From: an uncultured Spirochaetota bacterium
Lineage (GTDB): Bacteria > Spirochaetota > Spirochaetia > SZUA-6 > Fen-1364
DNA length: 64,000 nucleotides
NCBI GenBank assembly: GCA_963734545.1
Contig: CAVTHO010000003.1
Coordinates: 416,001-480,000, forward strand
Direction of reading: 5' to 3'
Under the pieces are notes generated by a model, which saw nothing but the letters and a program-made list of their open reading frames with translations, was not told the DNA's origin and searched no databases. A program made the position numbers and the translations under genes. This document shows, piece by piece, positions 55,251 to 63,433 of the stretch (positions within the stretch are counted from its first letter, which is position 1; each line of letters starts with the position of its first letter).

Positions 55251-56474
55251 TCACTGCAGTGCCTCCTCTATGATGTCGATGCCTTTCTGGATTTCCTTCT
55301 TCGTGATGACGAGCGGCGGGGCGATCCGCAGCATGTTCGCACCCGACCGCAGGGCGAGCATGCCCTTCTGCCTGAAGCCGGGCCAGCAGGTCCTTCACCT
55401 CCCCGCCGGTGTATTCGAATCCCCGCAGGAGCCCGCGGCCGCGGATTGCTCCCACGCTTGCGTGGCGCGACTTCAGCTCTTCGAGGCCCTGGCACAGGAA
55501 TTCGCCGGCCTCCCTGACCCGGTCGAGGAAGCCCGGCTGGCTGACCGTCTCCCACACCTTGAGCGCCACCGCGGTGGTGACCGGGCCGCCGCCGAAGGTG
55601 GTGCCATGGTCGCTGTGGTGGATCAGCTCGTGGATCTTTTCCGGGATCAGGACCGCGGAGAGCGGCAGACCGCCTGCCAGGGGCTTGGCCAGCGTGATGA
55701 GGTCCGGCACCAGTCCCACGCCCTCAGACGCGTAGAACGTGCCCGTGCGGGCGATGCCGGTCTGCACCTCGTCGACGATCAGCATGGCGTTCGTCTTCCG
55801 GCAGAGCGTCGTTCAGCGCCTGGGCGAACTCCGGCGTCATGCAGGCGAGACCGCCTTCGCCCTGGATCACCTCAACGATCACCCCGGCAAACTCGTCCGT
55901 GAGGGTACGCGCGCAGCGCCGCCGCGTCGTTGTACGGTGCCACGACCACGCCGGGGAGGAGGGGCAGGTAGGGGTCCTGGTACTTCGGGGTGGGCGTGCA
56001 GGAAAGCGAGCCGAGCGTCCTGCCATGAAATGCACCGGAGAAGCAGAGGAGCTTCTCGTGACCCGGGCCCTTCGTGCGCAGCGCATAGCAGGCGCGCGTA
56101 CTTGAGCGCTGCCTCGTTGGCTTCGGTCCCGCTGTTTCCGAAGAAGACCGAGGAGAATTTCCAGGGGCCCTTCGCGAGCATGGCCCGGGCCAGCGCGAGC
56201 GCCGGCTCGGTGGTGAAGAGGTTGGAGATGTGGGTGAGCCTGCGCATCTGCCGGTAGGCGGCTCTGCGCAAGATCGGCGCGGCCGTAGCCCAGGGCGTTC
56301 ACCGCGATCCCGCCGGCAAAGTCCAGGTACTTCCTGCCCGCGATGTCCTCCAGCCACACCCCGTGACCGCTGCGCAGCACGAGGAGCTCGCTCGCCGTAC
56401 TGCGGCGGGAAGGGGAGATTCGCGTCCACCCCCTCGCGCTCCTGGCGCGGTTGATGAACCTTCTTCATTTCCAT
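55251..56474 (-). CDS. argD: Acetylornithine aminotransferase (several indels)
   Basis: [62 protein letters not shown]. Confidence 0.9.
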
Positions 56475-57245
56475 AGTCGCGTCCCCTGTTTTCCTTCCAG
56501 GAGCCGGCCGAGGGAACCGGCGCCTTCGTACTGCCCGATGATCACCTTGTGCACGCCCCCGTCCATTGCCTCCAGGGAAGCGGTGACCTTCGGTATCATG
56601 CCGCCCGTGATCACGCCCTTTGCGATAAGCGCCCTGGCCTCGTCAGCCGAGAGGGCCTGGATGACGCTGCCTTCCGAGAGGATGCCCGGGATGTCGGAAA
56701 GGAACACCAGTGCGGAGGCGCCCAGGCGCGCTGCCAGGCCGAAGGCCGCCGTGTCCGCGTTGATGTTGAGGCCCCTGCCTTCCGCGTCCATGGAGGTGAG
56801 AAGAGACCACGGGGAGGTAGCCGTTTGACAAGGAGAAGGATCAGGAGCCGTTCGTCCAGGTCGGTGATTTCTCCTGTGCGGGTGTGCGCGGAAGTCCGTG
56901 GAGCGCTCATGGCGCGGCCGGTGAAGATGCCGCCGTCCGATCCGCTGAGGCCGACGGCATTCAAGCCCCGGGTGCGCAGCAGCCGCACGAGCTGTTTGTT
57001 GATCTTGCCCGCGAGCACCATGTCCACGATGTCCATCTCCTCGGGCGAGGTCAGGCGCACGCCGTCGTGAAAGACCGCCTCGATGCCGAGCCTCCGGGAA
57101 ACCGCCGTCACCTCCGCTCCTCCGCCATGCACGAGAATGACCTGGTGCTCGCGGGACAGGGCGAAGCATCTCGTCGCACAGGGCGGCACAGGTCTGCCGT
57201 CCGCTCCGCGGCCCTGCCGCCGATCTTTACGAGGATCGTTCCCAC
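56465..57245 (-). CDS. argB: Acetylglutamate kinase (indels)
   Basis: VKIGG, LVHGGG, GVRLT, NINAD, LSDIPG, GGMIPK. Confidence 0.9.
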
Positions 57246-57246
57246 C

Positions 57247-58308
57247 TTACAGCTCCGCACCCAGGGGAAGCCCCGCGGTCTCGGGCAGGCCGAACCGGAT
57301 GTTCATGTTCTGCACGGCCTGGCCGGAGGCGCCCTTCACGAGGTTGTCGATGACGGAGAAGAGCATCAGGTGCTTTCCTTCCACCTTCCACCCGATGTCG
57401 CACCGGTTGGAGCCCCAGACCTCTCGGGTCTGCGGGATACTGCCGCCCGTCAGGCTGATGAACGGCCTGCCCCCGTAGTATTTCTGAAACACTTCCGCAA
57501 TGCTTCCCGGCCCGGAGTCCGGCGGCTCCCGGGAGAGCTCGACCACGGTGGTCACGGCCATTCCCCGGCGCAGCGGCGCCATGTGCGGCGTGAACAGGAG
57601 CGAGAGGGCTCCGTGCGCCGCCGTCAGCTCCTGGGCGATCTCCGGCGCAGTGCCGATGGCTCGTGCCGGCGTTGTACGCGTTCGCATTCTCCGAGCGCTC
57701 GCAGAAGAGGAGGTCTGCCTTCTCCTTGCGGCCCGCACCCGAGATCCCGGAGATTGCGTTCACGATCACGGTGCCCTTCAGCAGCCCTTCCCGCGCCAGC
57801 GGCAGGAGCGGAAGGAGGGTCGCGGTTGGATAGCAGCCGGGGATCGCGATGATGTCCGCCATCCGGATGGACTCCGTGTGCCATTCGGCAAGGCCGTAGA
57901 CCGCCTTGTCACGCAGGTCGGGATTCGGCATGGGCGCGCCATACGCGCTCTGGAACACCGCGGGGTCATGCAGGCGGAAATCCGCGGAAAGGTCTATGAC
58001 GACCGTCTTTCCAAAAAGGGGAGCGCACACCTCCGCGGACTTCAGGTGGGGAAGCGCTGAGAAAACCACGTCCAGCGCGCCGGACTCCGCGGCCCGCACC
58101 GCCTCAGCCATGCTCGCGAGCTTTCCACCTGAAGAGCTCATTCTGTCCTCGATGCCGGGGGGAAGTCCGGGGTCCGCAGTCCCGCACCTTCGTCCCCGGC
58201 TGGGAGGAGGAGACGGCCATGATGTCCTGCACCTGCGGGTGCTGCCCGAGGAGGCGGAGGAGGACCATGCCCGTGTATCCTGTTGCGCCCAGATACGGCT
58301 GTCTTCAA
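57247..58308 (-). CDS. argC: N-acetyl-gamma-glutamyl-phosphate reductase (indels)
   Basis: GATGYTG (after an indel), DLSADFRL, IPGCYPT, SGISGAGR, DNLVKGASGQAVQNMN. Confidence 0.92.
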
Positions 58309-58998: not shown

Positions 58999-59569
58999 GT
59001 GAAAGTCTGCGTGTTCTGTTCTTCCAGTGACGCCGTGGACGGCGACATACCTCGCCGCGGCGGCGGAGATGGGGGCCCTGATCGGCGGCGGCGGGCACAC
59101 GCTGGTGTTCGGCGGGGGCAGGGTGGGGTTGATGGGCGCCACGGCGCGGGCGGTCCATGAAGCCGGCGGCCGCGTGATCGGCGTCATTCCGACATTCATG
59201 AACCGGCCCGGGGTGCCCTACCTCGAGTGCGACGAGCTCACCTTCACGAAGGACATGCGGGAGCGCAAGGCTCTCATGATGGAAATGTCGGATGCGTTCA
59301 TTGCCCTTCCCGGAGGGTTCGGGACCCTGGAGGAGATCTCCGAAGTCATCACGCAGAAGCAGTTCGGATTCCTCAAGGCGCCTCTCGTCGCGGTGAACAC
59401 GGAGGGCTTTTTCGATCATCTCGCCGCGTTCTTCGAGAAGTTCTACGCGCTGAGCTTCGCCAAGCCGGTCTTCCGCGACACCTGTCCGTTCGTGGCCACG
59501 CCGGCGGACGCCATGGCCTACATCAGGGGCTACACCCCGCCGACCGTGACCAGCAAGTGGTTCACATGA
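58999..59569 (+). CDS. LOG family (TIGR00730) phosphoribohydrolase (indel near 59045)
   Basis: VCVFCSSS, GGGRVGLMG, MRERK, ALPGGFGTLEE. Confidence 0.9.
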
Positions 59570-60353
59570 GCCCGCACTCCTCCAGGAGGCGCCTCATCTC
59601 CCGGGCGTTCTTTGCCGCGCTTCCCCTCCAGTGGTTGTTGAAGAAAAGAAGGAGGACCGGCACACGGGCGAGGATCTCCCTTATCCGATCCACCCACTCG
59701 CGGAGCTCCCCGACACTGTACAGGTAGTCGTAGCGGGACGCGTTGTCTCCCGTCCACCAGTTGGCCGCGTTCCGCCCGTGGAACCGGACGTATCCGAAGT
59801 CTCCCGTGATCTCGCTTGTCGGCCGGAGGAGACGGGGAAGATCAGGCTCGTCCACGCTCACCAGGCTGACACCCCTCTCACGAAGTCCCTCGTAGACCTG
59901 CTCCCTCAGCCAGTCACTCTTGCGGAACTCGACGGCGAGGGGCAGCCCCGCGAGCTTCTCGCAGAGAGCAGCCAGCCGCGCGCGGGACTCCGCCGAGTAG
60001 GAGAAGCTGTACGGAAACTGGAGAAGGACGGCGGCCAGCCGCCGGGAATCCACCAGGGGCTGTATCCCCGCGCGGAAGGCCGCGACGTCCCTGTCCCAGC
60101 TCTCCCCGATCTCGTGCGTCATGCTGCGGTGCGCCTTCAGCGCGAAGAGAAACCCGTCCGGTGTGGAGGCGACCATCCGTTCCAGCGTGCGCACGCTCGG
60201 CTGCGCGTAGTAGGAGAAGTTCAGCTCCACGGTCGGGAACTCACGGGAATAGAGGGAGAGGAACTCCTGCTTCGACGTGCCCGGCGGGTACACCGGGCCC
60301 ACCCAGTCCTCGTACGAGTAACCGCTCGTGCCGATCAGCACCCTCGGTGTCAT
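59562..60353 (-). CDS. DUF72 domain protein
   Basis: IGTSGYSYEDW, VELNFSYY, LLQFPYSF, YVRFHGRN, YDYLYS, FFNNH. Confidence 0.92.
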   Translation of the reverse strand: MTPRVLIGTSGYSYEDWVGPVYPPGTSKQEFLSLYSREFPTVELNFSYYAQPSVRTLERMVASTPDGFLFALKAHRSMTHEIGESWDRDVAAFRAGIQPLVDSRRLAAVLLQFPYSFSYSAESRARLAALCEKLAGLPLAVEFRKSDWLREQVYEGLRERGVSLVSVDEPDLPRLLRPTSEITGDFGYVRFHGRNAANWWTGDNASRYDYLYSVGELREWVDRIREILARVPVLLLFFNNHWRGSAAKNAREMRRLLEECGLM

Positions 60354-60367
60354 GGTTTCAGGGGCCC

Positions 60368-61330
60368 TTAGTACCCTGCATTCCTGTCCACCACGTTATC
60401 AAGGGGCTCTCCGCGCACCCACCTGCCGAGATTGGCGAGGAAGACGTCGAACGCTTCCTCCTCGTAGCCGGGGTGCACTCCTCCGTAGTGCGGCGTGATC
60501 ACGACGTTCGGCATGCTCCAGAGGGGATGGCTTTTCGGCAGCGGCTCGGGGTCCGTCACGTCAAGACCCGCCCCGCGGACATTCCCCGCGCGCAGGGCGT
60601 CGACGAGCGCCGCGGTGTCCACGGAAGTGCCTCTCCCCGCGTTCAGAAGGAACGCGCCCTGCATGGCGTCCAGCTCTTTCTTTGCCACGAACAGGCGCGT
60701 GTCCCAGGTGTCGGGAAGGAGGAGCATGATGACCCGGGACCGGGCGAACGCCTCACGCCGCTTCTCCGGCCCCACTACCTCGTCCGCCACGGGGCTCGCC
60801 CCCGGGTGCCGTTTGATGCCGATTACGCGCATGCCAAGGGTGCGTCCCATGGCGGCGCACTGTTCGCCTATGGTGCCCAGGCCGGCGATGCACAGTGTCC
60901 GGCCCGCCAGGGAAGAGAGGCCCTCGGTGAGCGGAGCGTTGTTCCAGACGCCCTTCTCCTGGGCGAGCACGGCGCGATGGAGATTGCGCGTCAGCATGAG
61001 CGTCATGCCCCAGAGGTGTTCGGCCACGCAATTCCCATGGATATGCACGTTCGTAATGAGGGCCGGGTGCGCCGCGATCTCCGCCATTTTCAGGAGGGAA
61101 TCCACTCCCGCGATGTCCGACTGCAGCCACTGAAGGTTGGTGGCGCCGGTCCAGAGCTCACGCGGAAGGCGTGGATAGCAGATCTCGATCCGGGCAAGGA
61201 GACCCGGGTCCTCGGCAAGTCGTGCTTTCTCGACGATCCGAGCGGCAGGAGCCACGGACCTGAGCCGTGTCGCCTGGTCCTCGGTAAGGGCCTGGGTGAG
61301 AAGGATGTAGGGACTGGTTGATCGCTGCAT
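60368..61330 (-). CDS. D-2-hydroxyacid dehydrogenase
   Basis: GLGTIG, NAGRG, GAGLDVTDPEPL, ITPH. Confidence 0.92.
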   Translation of the reverse strand: MQRSTSPYILLTQALTEDQATRLRSVAPAARIVEKARLAEDPGLLARIEICYPRLPRELWTGATNLQWLQSDIAGVDSLLKMAEIAAHPALITNVHIHGNCVAEHLWGMTLMLTRNLHRAVLAQEKGVWNNAPLTEGLSSLAGRTLCIAGLGTIGEQCAAMGRTLGMRVIGIKRHPGASPVADEVVGPEKRREAFARSRVIMLLLPDTWDTRLFVAKKELDAMQGAFLLNAGRGTSVDTAALVDALRAGNVRGAGLDVTDPEPLPKSHPLWSMPNVVITPHYGGVHPGYEEEAFDVFLANLGRWVRGEPLDNVVDRNAGY

Positions 61331-61420
61331 TGCTCAGAAGTGACCGCTGATTGAGACGAAAGTCAAGCCGGTTCGTCCGCCGCATTGACCTGCGCCGCAT
61401 ACGTCGGAATAATCACCGCA

Positions 61421-62443
61421 ATGACTGCCCTTGAGGGCCCGCGGTTCACACGTGCAACCTCCGACTGGACTCCCGCGGACCGCCTGGGGGCGCTGCGCTG
61501 CCGCCTGGGAATGTTCCGGTCGCCGCATCGCGTGGAGCCGGGACTGTACTCTCTCGGAAGACCCGGCACGGACTCACCGGTCCTCGCGACGGGAAATTAC
61601 CGGCTCACCTTCGATCTCCTCAGGACGGGCCTGCGCGGCTGCGATTGCTGGATCCTCGTCCTGGATACGGACGGGATGGACGTTGCCAGCGGCGCGGCGA
61701 CCGGCAGGTTCGGCACGGATGAGCTGATCACGAGGATGCTGAAGACGCGCCTCCCGGAAGTGGTGCGCCACCGCGCGGTGATACTGCCGCAGATCGGGGC
61801 GCGGGCAATAGACGGCGGGGCAGTACGAAGGGACACGGGATTTGACGTCCTTGCCGGCCCTGCGCGAGCGGAGGACATTCCCGGCTATCTCGCGCGGGGC
61901 AGCAGCCCGACCACGGAGATGCGCGCTGTCCGGTTCACGCTGCGGGACCGGCTGGGCGTCAGCCTCATGGAAGTGGGACGGTCGCTGCTGATCTTTCCCG
62001 TCTTCGCGTTCGGGGCGCTGATCGTCGCGGGACTGGGTCCCGGCGGGGTATCCCTCGAGAGAGCCTGGACCCATGTGTGGCCGCTCTTTGCCCTGGGGCT
62101 GGGCAGCGTCTGCGCCGGCTCTTTCCTCGTGCCGTCCGCCCTTCCCGGGATTCCGTTCGCCGCGTATTCCGCGAAAGGATGGCTGATGGGTGCCGCGGTG
62201 ACTGCCCTCTTGCTGCATGGCGCCGGCTTTGCGCGCGGCATGGATCCCTTCCTCACGGCCGCGTGCTACCTGTTCTTCCCCGCGGCCAGCGCCGCGCTCG
62301 CGCTGCGCTTTGCCGGCGCCACTCCGGCGGGATTCTTTCCCGCGGCACGAACCGAGATCCGGCGCGCGTGGCCTTTTTTCGCGGCCGCCGCCCTGCTGAC
62401 AGGCGCAGCGCTCGCCTTGTCCCGGCTCGGTCCGTGGGCATGA
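61421..62443 (+). CDS. HgcA-like corrinoid-binding membrane protein lacking the cap-helix Cys
   Basis: VEPGLYSLG, SPVLATGNYRLTFDLLR, WILVLDT, HRAVILPQIGA, TGF...GPARAEDIP and about 5 C-terminal TMs match HgcA architecture. The cap helix reads GMDVASGAATG instead of GINVWCAAGKG. Confidence 0.8.
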   Translation: MTALEGPRFTRATSDWTPADRLGALRCRLGMFRSPHRVEPGLYSLGRPGTDSPVLATGNYRLTFDLLRTGLRGCDCWILVLDTDGMDVASGAATGRFGTDELITRMLKTRLPEVVRHRAVILPQIGARAIDGGAVRRDTGFDVLAGPARAEDIPGYLARGSSPTTEMRAVRFTLRDRLGVSLMEVGRSLLIFPVFAFGALIVAGLGPGGVSLERAWTHVWPLFALGLGSVCAGSFLVPSALPGIPFAAYSAKGWLMGAAVTALLLHGAGFARGMDPFLTAACYLFFPAASAALALRFAGATPAGFFPAARTEIRRAWPFFAAAALLTGAALALSRLGPWA

Positions 62444-62485
62444 CGTTGAAAACAGCGTATTATTGAGAACAACGAGGATGCATCC

Positions 62486-63433
62486 GTGAAGAGAAGAGCT
62501 GTCTTCTTCCTGGGCCTTCTGGCCGCGTCTCAACTGGTCGCGCAGGATATATTCGAGCTTGCCTCGCGCGGCGCGCCGGGGCAGATCCCGGCCGGGCGGG
62601 ATGCGGGGGCGAGCGTGAACGCGCAGGACGAAAAAGGAAGAACGCCGCTCATGTACGCGGCCAGTGACAACCCGGACGCCGGGATGATCGATGCCCTTCT
62701 GAAGGCCGGGGCGAGGATCTCGGACAGGGACGGCAAGGGCATGTCCGCTGTCATGTGGGCGGCTTCCAACAACGGCAATCCGAACGTGATCGCCGCCCTT
62801 CTGAAAGCGGGAGCGAAGATCGACGACCGGGACAATTTCGGCCTCACCGCGCTCATGGCCGCGGCCACGGGAAACCAGAATCCCGAGGTGATCACGATGC
62901 TCGTGAATGCGGGTGCGAGCGTGAAGGGCGGCAATATACTGGGGTGGACTCCGCTCATGCACGCCGTGATCTACAACAGGAACCTGGAGGTGATCGCCGC
63001 GCTGGTAAAGGCCGGGGCGGGGATCTCGGACAGGGACGAGCAGGGGATCACCCCTCTCATGTGGGCGGCGAGCAAACGGGACCCCGCGGTGGTGGACCTC
63101 CTGATGAAGGAAGGGAGCAGGATCGACGACCGGGACGAAAACGGCCTGACCGCGCTGATGCATGCCGCGCGGGACAACCCTCTGCCCGCTGTCATCACGG
63201 CGCTGCTTGCCGCGGGGGCCGCCATTGACGCGGTGGACGAGAGCGGGCAGAGCGCGCTCATGTGGGCCGTGCAGAGCAACCAGAACGCGGATTGCATTTC
63301 CGCGCTCCTGGAAGCGGGGGCGGACGGAGCGTTGAAGGACAAGACCGGGAAAACGGCATTCGAGTACGCCAAGGACAATCAGAAGTTGAAAGGAACAAAA
63401 GTGTATTGGCAGCTGAACGACGCGCGATTCTAG
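62486..63433 (+). CDS. Secreted ankyrin-repeat protein
   Basis: Signal peptide plus about 8 repeats of G-x-T-(P/A)-L-M-x-A-A...L-L-x-A-G-A. Confidence 0.92.
   Translation: MKRRAVFFLGLLAASQLVAQDIFELASRGAPGQIPAGRDAGASVNAQDEKGRTPLMYAASDNPDAGMIDALLKAGARISDRDGKGMSAVMWAASNNGNPNVIAALLKAGAKIDDRDNFGLTALMAAATGNQNPEVITMLVNAGASVKGGNILGWTPLMHAVIYNRNLEVIAALVKAGAGISDRDEQGITPLMWAASKRDPAVVDLLMKEGSRIDDRDENGLTALMHAARDNPLPAVITALLAAGAAIDAVDESGQSALMWAVQSNQNADCISALLEAGADGALKDKTGKTAFEYAKDNQKLKGTKVYWQLNDARF

Follow-up and report, generated by a model that had tools for sequence, protein, structure and literature searches.

An orphan HgcA-type gene with a degenerate cap helix and no hgcB in a Spirochaetota genus that also carries canonical hgcAB

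The window analyzed here, a stretch of 64,000 nucleotides from an uncultured Spirochaetota bacterium (assembly GCA_963734545.1, contig CAVTHO010000003.1, positions 416,001 to 480,000), contains an HgcA-type orphan gene whose product has Ser at the place of the cobalt-ligating Cys and which has no hgcB beside it, while a canonical hgcAB pair lies elsewhere in the same genome. The gene appears, from trees and gene order, to be a native hgcA that stayed behind when its hgcB was deleted, and its product is probably a retained, non-methylating membrane protein, either a corrinoid holder or a pseudoenzyme partner. The physiological role of HgcAB is not established, and surveys of methylation potential depend on recognizing true hgcA genes. 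HgcA itself is said to have been identified as the corrinoid protein of mercury methylation by Parks in 2013.

The orphan gene and its product

The gene and the parts of its product, numbered by position in the window, are the following (aa, amino acids; CFeSP, corrinoid iron-sulfur protein; ORF, open reading frame).
61421..62443, plus strand: coding sequence of the HgcA-type orphan paralogue, 340 aa, stop included, with no internal stops
61517..61888, plus strand: corrinoid-binding domain, residues 33-156 (PF03599, E 8e-16; alignment with CFeSP)
61673..61711, plus strand: degenerate cap helix GMDVASGAATGRF, residues 85-97 (canonical form GxN[VI]WCA[AG]GKGTF)
61679-61681, plus strand: Asp87 codon GAC (from the ORF translation)
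61688..61690, plus strand: AGC codon of Ser90, the residue found where HgcA has the cobalt-ligating Cys (relatives use TGC, a one-base difference)
61940..62437, plus strand: transmembrane domain with five predicted helices, residues 174-204, 212-239, 249-267, 276-300, and 309-339 (AlphaFold2 model)
62309..62356, plus strand: eroded C-terminal signature, residues 297-312, FAG....G...A...E (canonical FTG....T...G...E; conservation comparison)

The initial annotation, made from the sequence alone, described a full-length HgcA layout with an altered Cys-bearing cap helix and a C-terminal FAG signature in place of FTG, and each of these features is borne out. The NCBIfam model HgcA_corrinoid (NF040863) matches the window protein nearly end to end, over profile positions 3-318 of 325, with a score of 271.3 bits (270.9 bits for the gene in a six-frame search), which is 3.7 bits below the curated cut-off of 275 bits. 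PF03599 is the sole Pfam match, at residues 33-156, and is limited to profile positions 263-386 of 387, the last 124 positions. The HgcAB-like fusion model NF043039 (161.8 bits over profile positions 12-182 of 350; cut-off, 285) and PRK04165 (85.8 bits; cut-off, 306) score far below their thresholds. Sequence matches in the PDB are CFeSP large subunits only, through the C-terminal domain of 2h9a and 4c1n (E 2e-16). The AlphaFold2 model, built with 136 aligned relatives, has a pLDDT of 95.1 and a pTM of 0.88, contains the five predicted transmembrane helices, and retains the cap helix at residues 88-94. Its top Foldseek match is the deposited HgcAB model 9a0b_A (337 columns, E 3e-17), followed by CFeSP large-subunit chains.

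Departures from HgcA occur in the cap helix and in the C-terminal stretch. Where the HgcA motif N[VI]WC[AS][AGS]GK (as listed by Capo 2022, PMC10087281) is expected, the window protein reads DVASGAAT, and in the sequence alignment Ser90 falls opposite the Thr of the CFeSP cap helix. The C-terminal stretch is RFAGATPAGFFPAARTEIRR in the window protein, NFTGASTFTSQPGAALEVKR in the co-resident canonical copy, and NFTGSTTFTSPSGVRKEIR in a sister-genus copy; T298, T304, and G308 (98% conservation at each position among 65 canonical HgcAs) are replaced by A, G, and A. Of the 74 positions conserved at 90% or more in those 65 proteins, 57 are retained by the window protein, with 4 of 11 kept in the cap helix versus 53 of 63 elsewhere (Fisher p 0.002), and 3 of the 10 positions lost outside the cap helix lie within the C-terminal FTG..T...G motif. 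No Cys-rich ferredoxin tail is present in the window protein sequence.

Ser90 is not an assembly error, because three independent assemblies carry Ser. The initial annotation had allowed that reads might show NVWC at this place; in the independent assemblies compared with the window, Ser was seen and NVWC was not. The sequencing runs entered this comparison as Logan contigs rather than raw reads, and none of them resembles the source sample (best word share, 0.30). A run contig of 1323 nt (X3; ~94% identical, 80 differences) spans the gene and agrees with the window at 61679 and 61688, and proteins P0247 and P0248 (JGI and Logan; same 90% cluster, each 94% identical) read GMDAASGAETGRF. In a run contig of 112 nt (X1), a sister lineage is represented by its Cys variant (A61688T, G61679A), and the Cys-bearing and Ser-bearing forms thus both exist in nature. 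A true Cys hidden by a sequencing or assembly error is hardly credible: AGC and TGC differ by only one base and frameshifted argB and argC lie nearby in the same assembly, but Ser recurs in the three independent assemblies and six further cap-helix residues have changed as well.

The two frameshifted genes lie 3-5 kb upstream of the window gene. Both argB (ORFs 56465-57169 and 56611-57189) and argC (57227-58141 and 57247-57738) are split over two frames on the minus strand, within 56465-58141 of the window. These splits are probably assembly indel errors; alternatively, the frameshifts in these arginine biosynthesis genes are real. The argR ORF (58138-932) has an odd Pro/Ala-rich tail.

Origin, locus, and co-resident hgcAB

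Trees were built with the cap-helix columns removed and with CFeSP as the outgroup, by FastTree for 170 rows and by IQ-TREE under a site-mixture model for 85 rows chosen from those 170. The IQ-TREE phylogeny contains a family clade of 53 rows (SH-aLRT 98) in which canonical hgcA genes of sister genera, linked to hgcB, branch at the base; the FastTree phylogeny agrees. Nested in this clade is an orphan clade of 48 rows (99), HgcB-less and belonging to one Spirochaetota genus, which includes the window gene. Canonical copies from the genus of the window genome fall in a clade of their own (100), which groups (99) with metagenome proteins, one of them named deltaproteobacterial by its source. Forcing the orphans and the co-resident canonical copies into one clade, which was named after the tree had been seen, was rejected (delta lnL 39, p-AU 0.006). 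The canonical hgcAB of the genus may derive from an older duplication or from transfer.

The neighbors of the window gene are the following.
59562-60353, minus strand: DUF72 gene (Pfam), syntenic anchor
60368-61330, minus strand: 2-hydroxyacid dehydrogenase (2HADH) gene (Pfam), syntenic anchor; the pair spans 59562..61330
61385..61413, plus strand: sigma-70-like promoter match TTGACC-17 nt-AATAAT, a consensus match only, ending 7 nt before the ATG (leaderless type)
62486..63433, plus strand: ankyrin-repeat protein gene (Ank_2, E 5e-46), where hgcB lies in sister genera

The divergently transcribed DUF72-2HADH pair is found upstream of eight orphans, the window gene among them, and upstream of the canonical hgcAB in two sister genera (L044 and L049); in L044 hgcB directly follows hgcA, in the position taken by the ankyrin gene in the window. 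Because the window gene is nested among sister-genus hgcAB in the trees and shares this locus with them, it is best read as the native hgcA left in place after deletion of hgcB. The initial annotation had reported the absence of an adjacent hgcB and an ankyrin protein as the next gene, and both observations hold, since no HgcB-like ferredoxin ORF was found in the flanks of the window gene and the Ank_2 match at 62486-63433 is strong. A promoter consensus scan found two sites, against 0.1 expected in shuffled sequences, and a like arrangement of -35 element, -10 element, and start codon occurs upstream of the orphans L037, L038, and L050 and of the canonical hgcA of L044. The ankyrin gene has its own promoter-like site (62435-62463), and its product has a signal-peptide-like start and looks secreted. 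This gene is present in L003/L037 and absent from L004/L038, where a phosphatase-like gene directly follows the orphan.

The initial annotation had also offered an intermediate between AcsC and HgcA as one possible identity, and this did not hold up: the window protein is a derived protein deep inside canonical HgcA. The basal lineages of its clade are sister-genus hgcAB that occupy the corresponding locus, and soluble CFeSP/CdhE proteins group apart from it. An ancestral protein of this kind, in which the Cys was never present, would account for the alignment of Ser90 with the CFeSP Thr and for PF03599 being the only Pfam match. It is nevertheless extremely improbable. With the CFeSP outgroup, the window protein stands at the tip of a clade that has canonical NVWCAAGKG hgcA genes with hgcB at its base, the nearest relatives (72-79% identity) retain the Cys (TGC), and the N-terminal Fe-S and TIM-barrel parts of CFeSP are absent from the window protein.

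The window genome (5.14 Mb in 10 contigs, 89% complete) was searched for canonical hgcAB, as the initial annotation had proposed, and the pair was found on contig C6. This hgcA scores 399 bits with NF040863 and has the motif NVWCAAGKG; directly downstream lies hgcB, whose product has two Fe-S cluster motifs and a C-terminal CC and is the only HgcB above the family cut-off in the genome. Searches with the HgcA model and with the window protein found these two hgcA genes only, and no match of CFeSP length. At the canonical locus (L001, G000 C6:159017-162973), a MarR-family gene lies directly upstream of the pair, with a SPASM-domain gene beyond it, and a gene for a low-molecular-weight phosphatase of ArsC-like fold lies downstream. 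An ArsR-type regulator beside canonical hgcAB was considered and ruled out, the upstream gene being of the MarR family.

Among 21 genomes of the genus, including the window genome, 17 carry an orphan, 17 carry a canonical hgcA, and 14 carry both. Three have the orphan only (70, 78, and 89% complete), three have the canonical gene only (69, 92, and 96% complete), and one, 72% complete, has neither. The orphans of the other genomes are 47-79% identical to the window protein. Across all fetched loci, an HgcB-like gene follows 53 of 55 hgcA genes with the canonical motif, the two misses being loci cut at contig ends, and none of the 16 orphans with visible downstream DNA. In a phylum-wide sample of 401 genomes, no close orphan relative was found besides that of the window genome, and the 29 best loci elsewhere were all canonical. 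The canonical hgcA of one genome (G416:C301:6169-7086, L070) has an in-frame TAG, and the orphan of that genome (L051) is open. Two genomes of the genus have two HgcB-linked canonical hgcA genes each (G412, L062 and L069; G405, L065 and L073); of these, L065 is divergent, sits on a long branch, and falls outside the canonical clade of the genus.

Motif erosion and selection in the orphan clade

The cap helix erodes in a series from NVWCAAGKG in the sister genera through NVWCAA[AG]xG and NV[AS]C to [DG]V[AG]S. Scores with NF040863 range from 399-410 bits for canonical copies and 373-379 bits for NVWCAAxxG orphans to 307 bits for NVSC and 284-289 bits for NVAC forms, 271 bits for the window protein, 264 bits for P0011, and 178-198 bits for a large Ser clade. 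Ser or Thr occupies the Cys position in 26 of the 95 relatives of the window protein that include this region, and all eight genomic sequences with Ser at this place encode it by AGC. The trees imply at least four replacements of the Cys: one in a clade of 15 rows with a Cys-bearing sister, and one each in the window lineage, P0011, and L048. Three relatives of 251-252 aa (P0047, P0062, and P0086) start within or just after the cap helix and may be contig-cut, miscalled at the start, or N-terminally truncated orphans.

The locus offers a natural loss-of-function series, in which hgcB was lost first and the cap-helix Lys, Trp, Asn, and Cys and the C-terminal motif followed stepwise, with the fold, the membrane domain, and the reading frame under purifying selection throughout. 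The residues that erode together after the loss of HgcB point to those of mercury chemistry, and the series suggests that the HgcA scaffold can be useful without that chemistry.

Selection on the window gene appears to be relaxed about twofold and still purifying, because its ratio of nonsynonymous to synonymous substitution rates (dN/dS; pairwise NG86, an average over time) is 0.25-0.28, compared with 0.10-0.16 for the canonical hgcA of the same genome pairs. The values for the window gene are 0.28 against L037 (bootstrap 95% interval, 0.21-0.39) and 0.25 against L038, those for the canonical gene include 0.15 (bootstrap, 0.09-0.22), and five flanking genes have ratios of 0.06-0.21. The decaying copy with dN/dS near 1 that the initial annotation had envisaged is therefore not what these values describe. 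NVWC-type orphans have dN/dS of ~0.15 and the large Ser clade has 0.23-0.33, and the 17 genomic orphan matches are all free of internal stops. Comparison of the window with the Ser-bearing X3 contig gives 15 synonymous and 10 nonsynonymous codon changes among 25 listed of the 80 differences, a partial list that makes for weak evidence. A parsimony placing of changes on single branches, tried for timing the relaxation, was dropped as too biased, being limited to codons at which the other two sequences agree.

These data bear on a further explanation, in which the native hgcA became functionless after the loss of hgcB and the takeover by a second hgcAB and is decaying toward deletion, its low dN/dS reflecting past constraint, selection against a misfolding membrane protein, or too little time. 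The progressive erosion of the signature motifs (NVWCAAGKG to NVWCAAxxG to NV[AS]C to [DG]V[AG]S), the at least four Cys losses, the rise of dN/dS from ~0.15 in NVWC-type orphans to 0.23-0.33 in Cys-less ones, the absence of the gene from the conserved locus in 4 of 21 genomes, the very long branch of the orphan L074 (1.11), and a terminal branch of the window gene about twice that of its sister (0.19 versus 0.083) would all fit such decay. However, each of the 12 orphan pairs tested has a dN/dS within 0.14-0.33, at dS values of 0.4-1.4, and the 17 genomic orphans and 86 further proteins (P0002-P0087, 47-79% identity) are all open and either of HgcA length or cut by contig ends. The promoter-like element is conserved, and argB and argC are frameshifted in the same assembly whereas the window gene is not. 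Moreover, four Cys losses all went to Ser (AGC), although Ser makes up only two of the seven non-stop single-base amino-acid replacements of TGC, and this suggests that the site is still constrained. Decay of a functionless relic is accordingly regarded as unlikely, though it is the main rival explanation.

Proposed function and relation to known systems

The preferred explanation is that of a retained, non-methylating membrane protein. The native hgcA-hgcB pair of this Spirochaetota genus would have lost hgcB, and another hgcAB pair, canonical and of separate ancestry, lies elsewhere in the genome. The orphan has kept its fold, its membrane domain, most of the corrinoid-domain core, and an open frame. 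Its mercury-specific signatures have eroded, both Asn, Trp, Cys, and Lys of the cap helix and the FTG..T...G motif near the C terminus. The protein is presumably still made, probably from the conserved leaderless-type promoter, would insert into the membrane with its five helices, and probably still holds a corrinoid. The Ser90 hydroxyl would lie under the cobalt like the aligned CFeSP Thr, replacing the thiolate ligand, and because Ser90 sits where the CFeSP Thr faces cobalt, any bound corrinoid would be held in the ligand-free manner of CFeSP. Hg(II) methylation is not to be expected without a Co-S bond and a dedicated HgcB. The most likely role would be that of a membrane corrinoid-holding protein or of a noncatalytic pseudoenzyme partner of canonical HgcAB, and a lesser possibility is a residual carrier of a methyl cation toward another acceptor.

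The initial annotation had suggested a non-methylating relative of HgcA, and this suggestion gains support; the specific roles it named, a membrane corrinoid carrier or sensor or a methyltransferase for another substrate, are candidates only. By analogy with mutants of HgcA, the window protein very probably does not methylate mercury, because its ligand Cys is Ser, C93A and C93T are inactive, and hgcB is not adjacent; the single HgcB of the genome lies beside the canonical hgcA. According to the accessible text of Cooper 2020 (PMC7305189), which quotes the HgcA mutagenesis results of Smith et al. 2015, C93A and C93T abolish methylation and C93H is partly active. For purified HgcAB, the accessible text of Zheng 2024 (PMC11588087) reports a measured Co-S bond and a methyl group that comes from SAM (S-adenosylmethionine).

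Several observations weigh against a retained function. The conserved neighbors (DUF72, 2-hydroxyacid dehydrogenase, and the ankyrin protein) point to no pathway, and the gene is dispensable, because in 4 of 21 genomes of the genus the DUF72-2HADH locus has no HgcA-like gene within ~1.5 kb. It is also the fastest-evolving gene at the locus, with 79% amino acid identity to L003 against 88-96% for the flanks. Time-averaged pairwise ratios cannot show selection acting today, and the bootstrap intervals of orphan and canonical dN/dS overlap slightly. In the subclade of the window gene the corrinoid domain is less constrained (dN/dS, 0.29-0.35) than the transmembrane domain (0.18-0.19), which fits either a membrane-based function or decay of the cofactor site. 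Corrinoid binding by the orphan is itself a prediction, and an HgcB-less HgcA may not load its cofactor, because HgcA expressed in Escherichia coli without HgcB was insoluble and lacked cobalamin, as the accessible text of PMC11588087 describes. No RNA run containing the stretch was found among the sequencing runs searched.

Residual methylation, of mercury or of another metal or metalloid, with the single HgcB or another ferredoxin acting in trans and with Ser or water under the cobalt, appears very unlikely. The 57 of 74 conserved canonical positions that are kept and the high confidence of the AlphaFold2 fold would permit it, the co-resident HgcB could in principle be shared, and NVWCAAxxG orphans lie between an MFS gene (8 of 8 loci) and an arsenite methyltransferase gene (5 of 8), which gives a hint of a connection with metalloids. 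Against these points stand the inactivity of C93A and C93T in the accessible text of PMC7305189, the additional loss of the cap-helix Trp, Asn, and Lys and of the C-terminal motif, and the contrast between 53 of 55 canonical hgcA genes and 0 of 16 orphans in having an adjacent hgcB. In addition, the ArsM gene of the window genome lies elsewhere, with neither HgcA nor that MFS gene beside it, and the genome has no CpaM-type methyltransferase above the cut-off. A CpaM-type methyltransferase had been considered as a partner of the orphan and was dropped on the same search result.

The NVWC orphans without the Lys (L039-L043 and L046-L048, in G413, G407, G406, G408, G415, G403, G420, and G412) are not at the native locus. 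A same-strand MFS transporter gene precedes the orphan in all eight loci, and in five of them the orphan is faced by a convergent gene for arsenite methyltransferase (NF008823, 339 bits; cut-off, 263). Each of these genomes has one orphan, and the one orphan clade occupies two loci.

A more ambitious version of retention, which is speculative and rather doubtful, would make the Cys-less orphans neofunctionalized, HgcB-independent membrane corrinoid proteins that arose by at least four independent reversions to a CFeSP-like state, with a Ser/Thr hydroxyl beneath the cobalt. Possible roles would be those of methyl-cation carriers to a non-mercury acceptor or of regulatory or scaffold partners of the co-resident canonical HgcAB. 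If this were true, the HgcA scaffold would have a cellular role independent of mercury methylation, and a genus with both forms would be a natural system for finding the physiological function of HgcA.

Compared with known systems, the orphan is closest to HgcA (NF040863), with which it shares the two-domain architecture, the length, the end-to-end profile match, the 9a0b_A fold match, and, through the sister-genus hgcAB, ancestry and locus. It differs in the cap helix (Cys to Ser, Trp to Ala, Asn to Asp, and Lys to Thr), in the eroded C-terminal motif, in the lack of hgcB, in its score below the cut-off, and in a dN/dS about twice the canonical value. The CFeSP large subunit (AcsC/CdhE) has a homologous corrinoid domain and likewise a hydroxyl residue in the cap helix (Thr, against Ser in the window protein). 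However, CFeSP is a soluble protein of ~445 aa from a Wood-Ljungdahl context, which pairs with a small subunit and combines a TIM barrel with an N-terminal [4Fe-4S] domain, whereas the window protein has none of these parts, has five predicted transmembrane helices, and lies apart from CFeSP in the trees.

The window protein clearly descends from an HgcA but should not be classed as one, because it lacks the Cys motif and hgcB and scores below the cut-off. It resembles the "hgcA-like" bin of surveys in matching the HgcA hidden Markov model without N[VI]WC[AS][AGS]GK; that bin, in the accessible text of PMC10087281 and PMC12874090, treats such matches as unknowns or false positives, whereas for the present clade the origin, the locus, the loss of the partner, and the selection regime could be worked out. 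The initial annotation had warned of a false positive in hgcA surveys, and this is true of close orphan relatives that score 284-379 bits and would be named HgcA, but not of the window copy, which at 271.3 bits falls below 275; moreover, motif-based pipelines already discard Cys-less hgcA-like matches, according to the accessible text of the same two sources. With orphans at 284-379 bits annotated as HgcA without hgcB, genomes of the genus may be credited with two methylation genes while having one. The accessible portions of earlier reports describe some hgcA genes without a neighboring hgcB (PMC10083202) and one bin with two hgcA copies (bioRxiv 2020.04.01.018762). In the literature searched, apart from supplementary tables, which may list members, no Cys-less, HgcB-less, full-length HgcA clade traced to native hgcAB under purifying selection was found.

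The HgcAB-like fusions (NF043039) are likewise HgcA relatives thought not to methylate Hg, and the fused HgcAB was non-methylating in tested isolates according to the accessible text of PMC10087281. The fusions retain the Cys, carry a ferredoxin tail that has no counterpart in the window protein, and form a separate, distant clade. Three such HgcAB-like proteins of 389-395 aa (L079-L081, in G429, G431, and G060) come from related families of the phylum and have the cap helix N[IV]WC[AG]S.GG.

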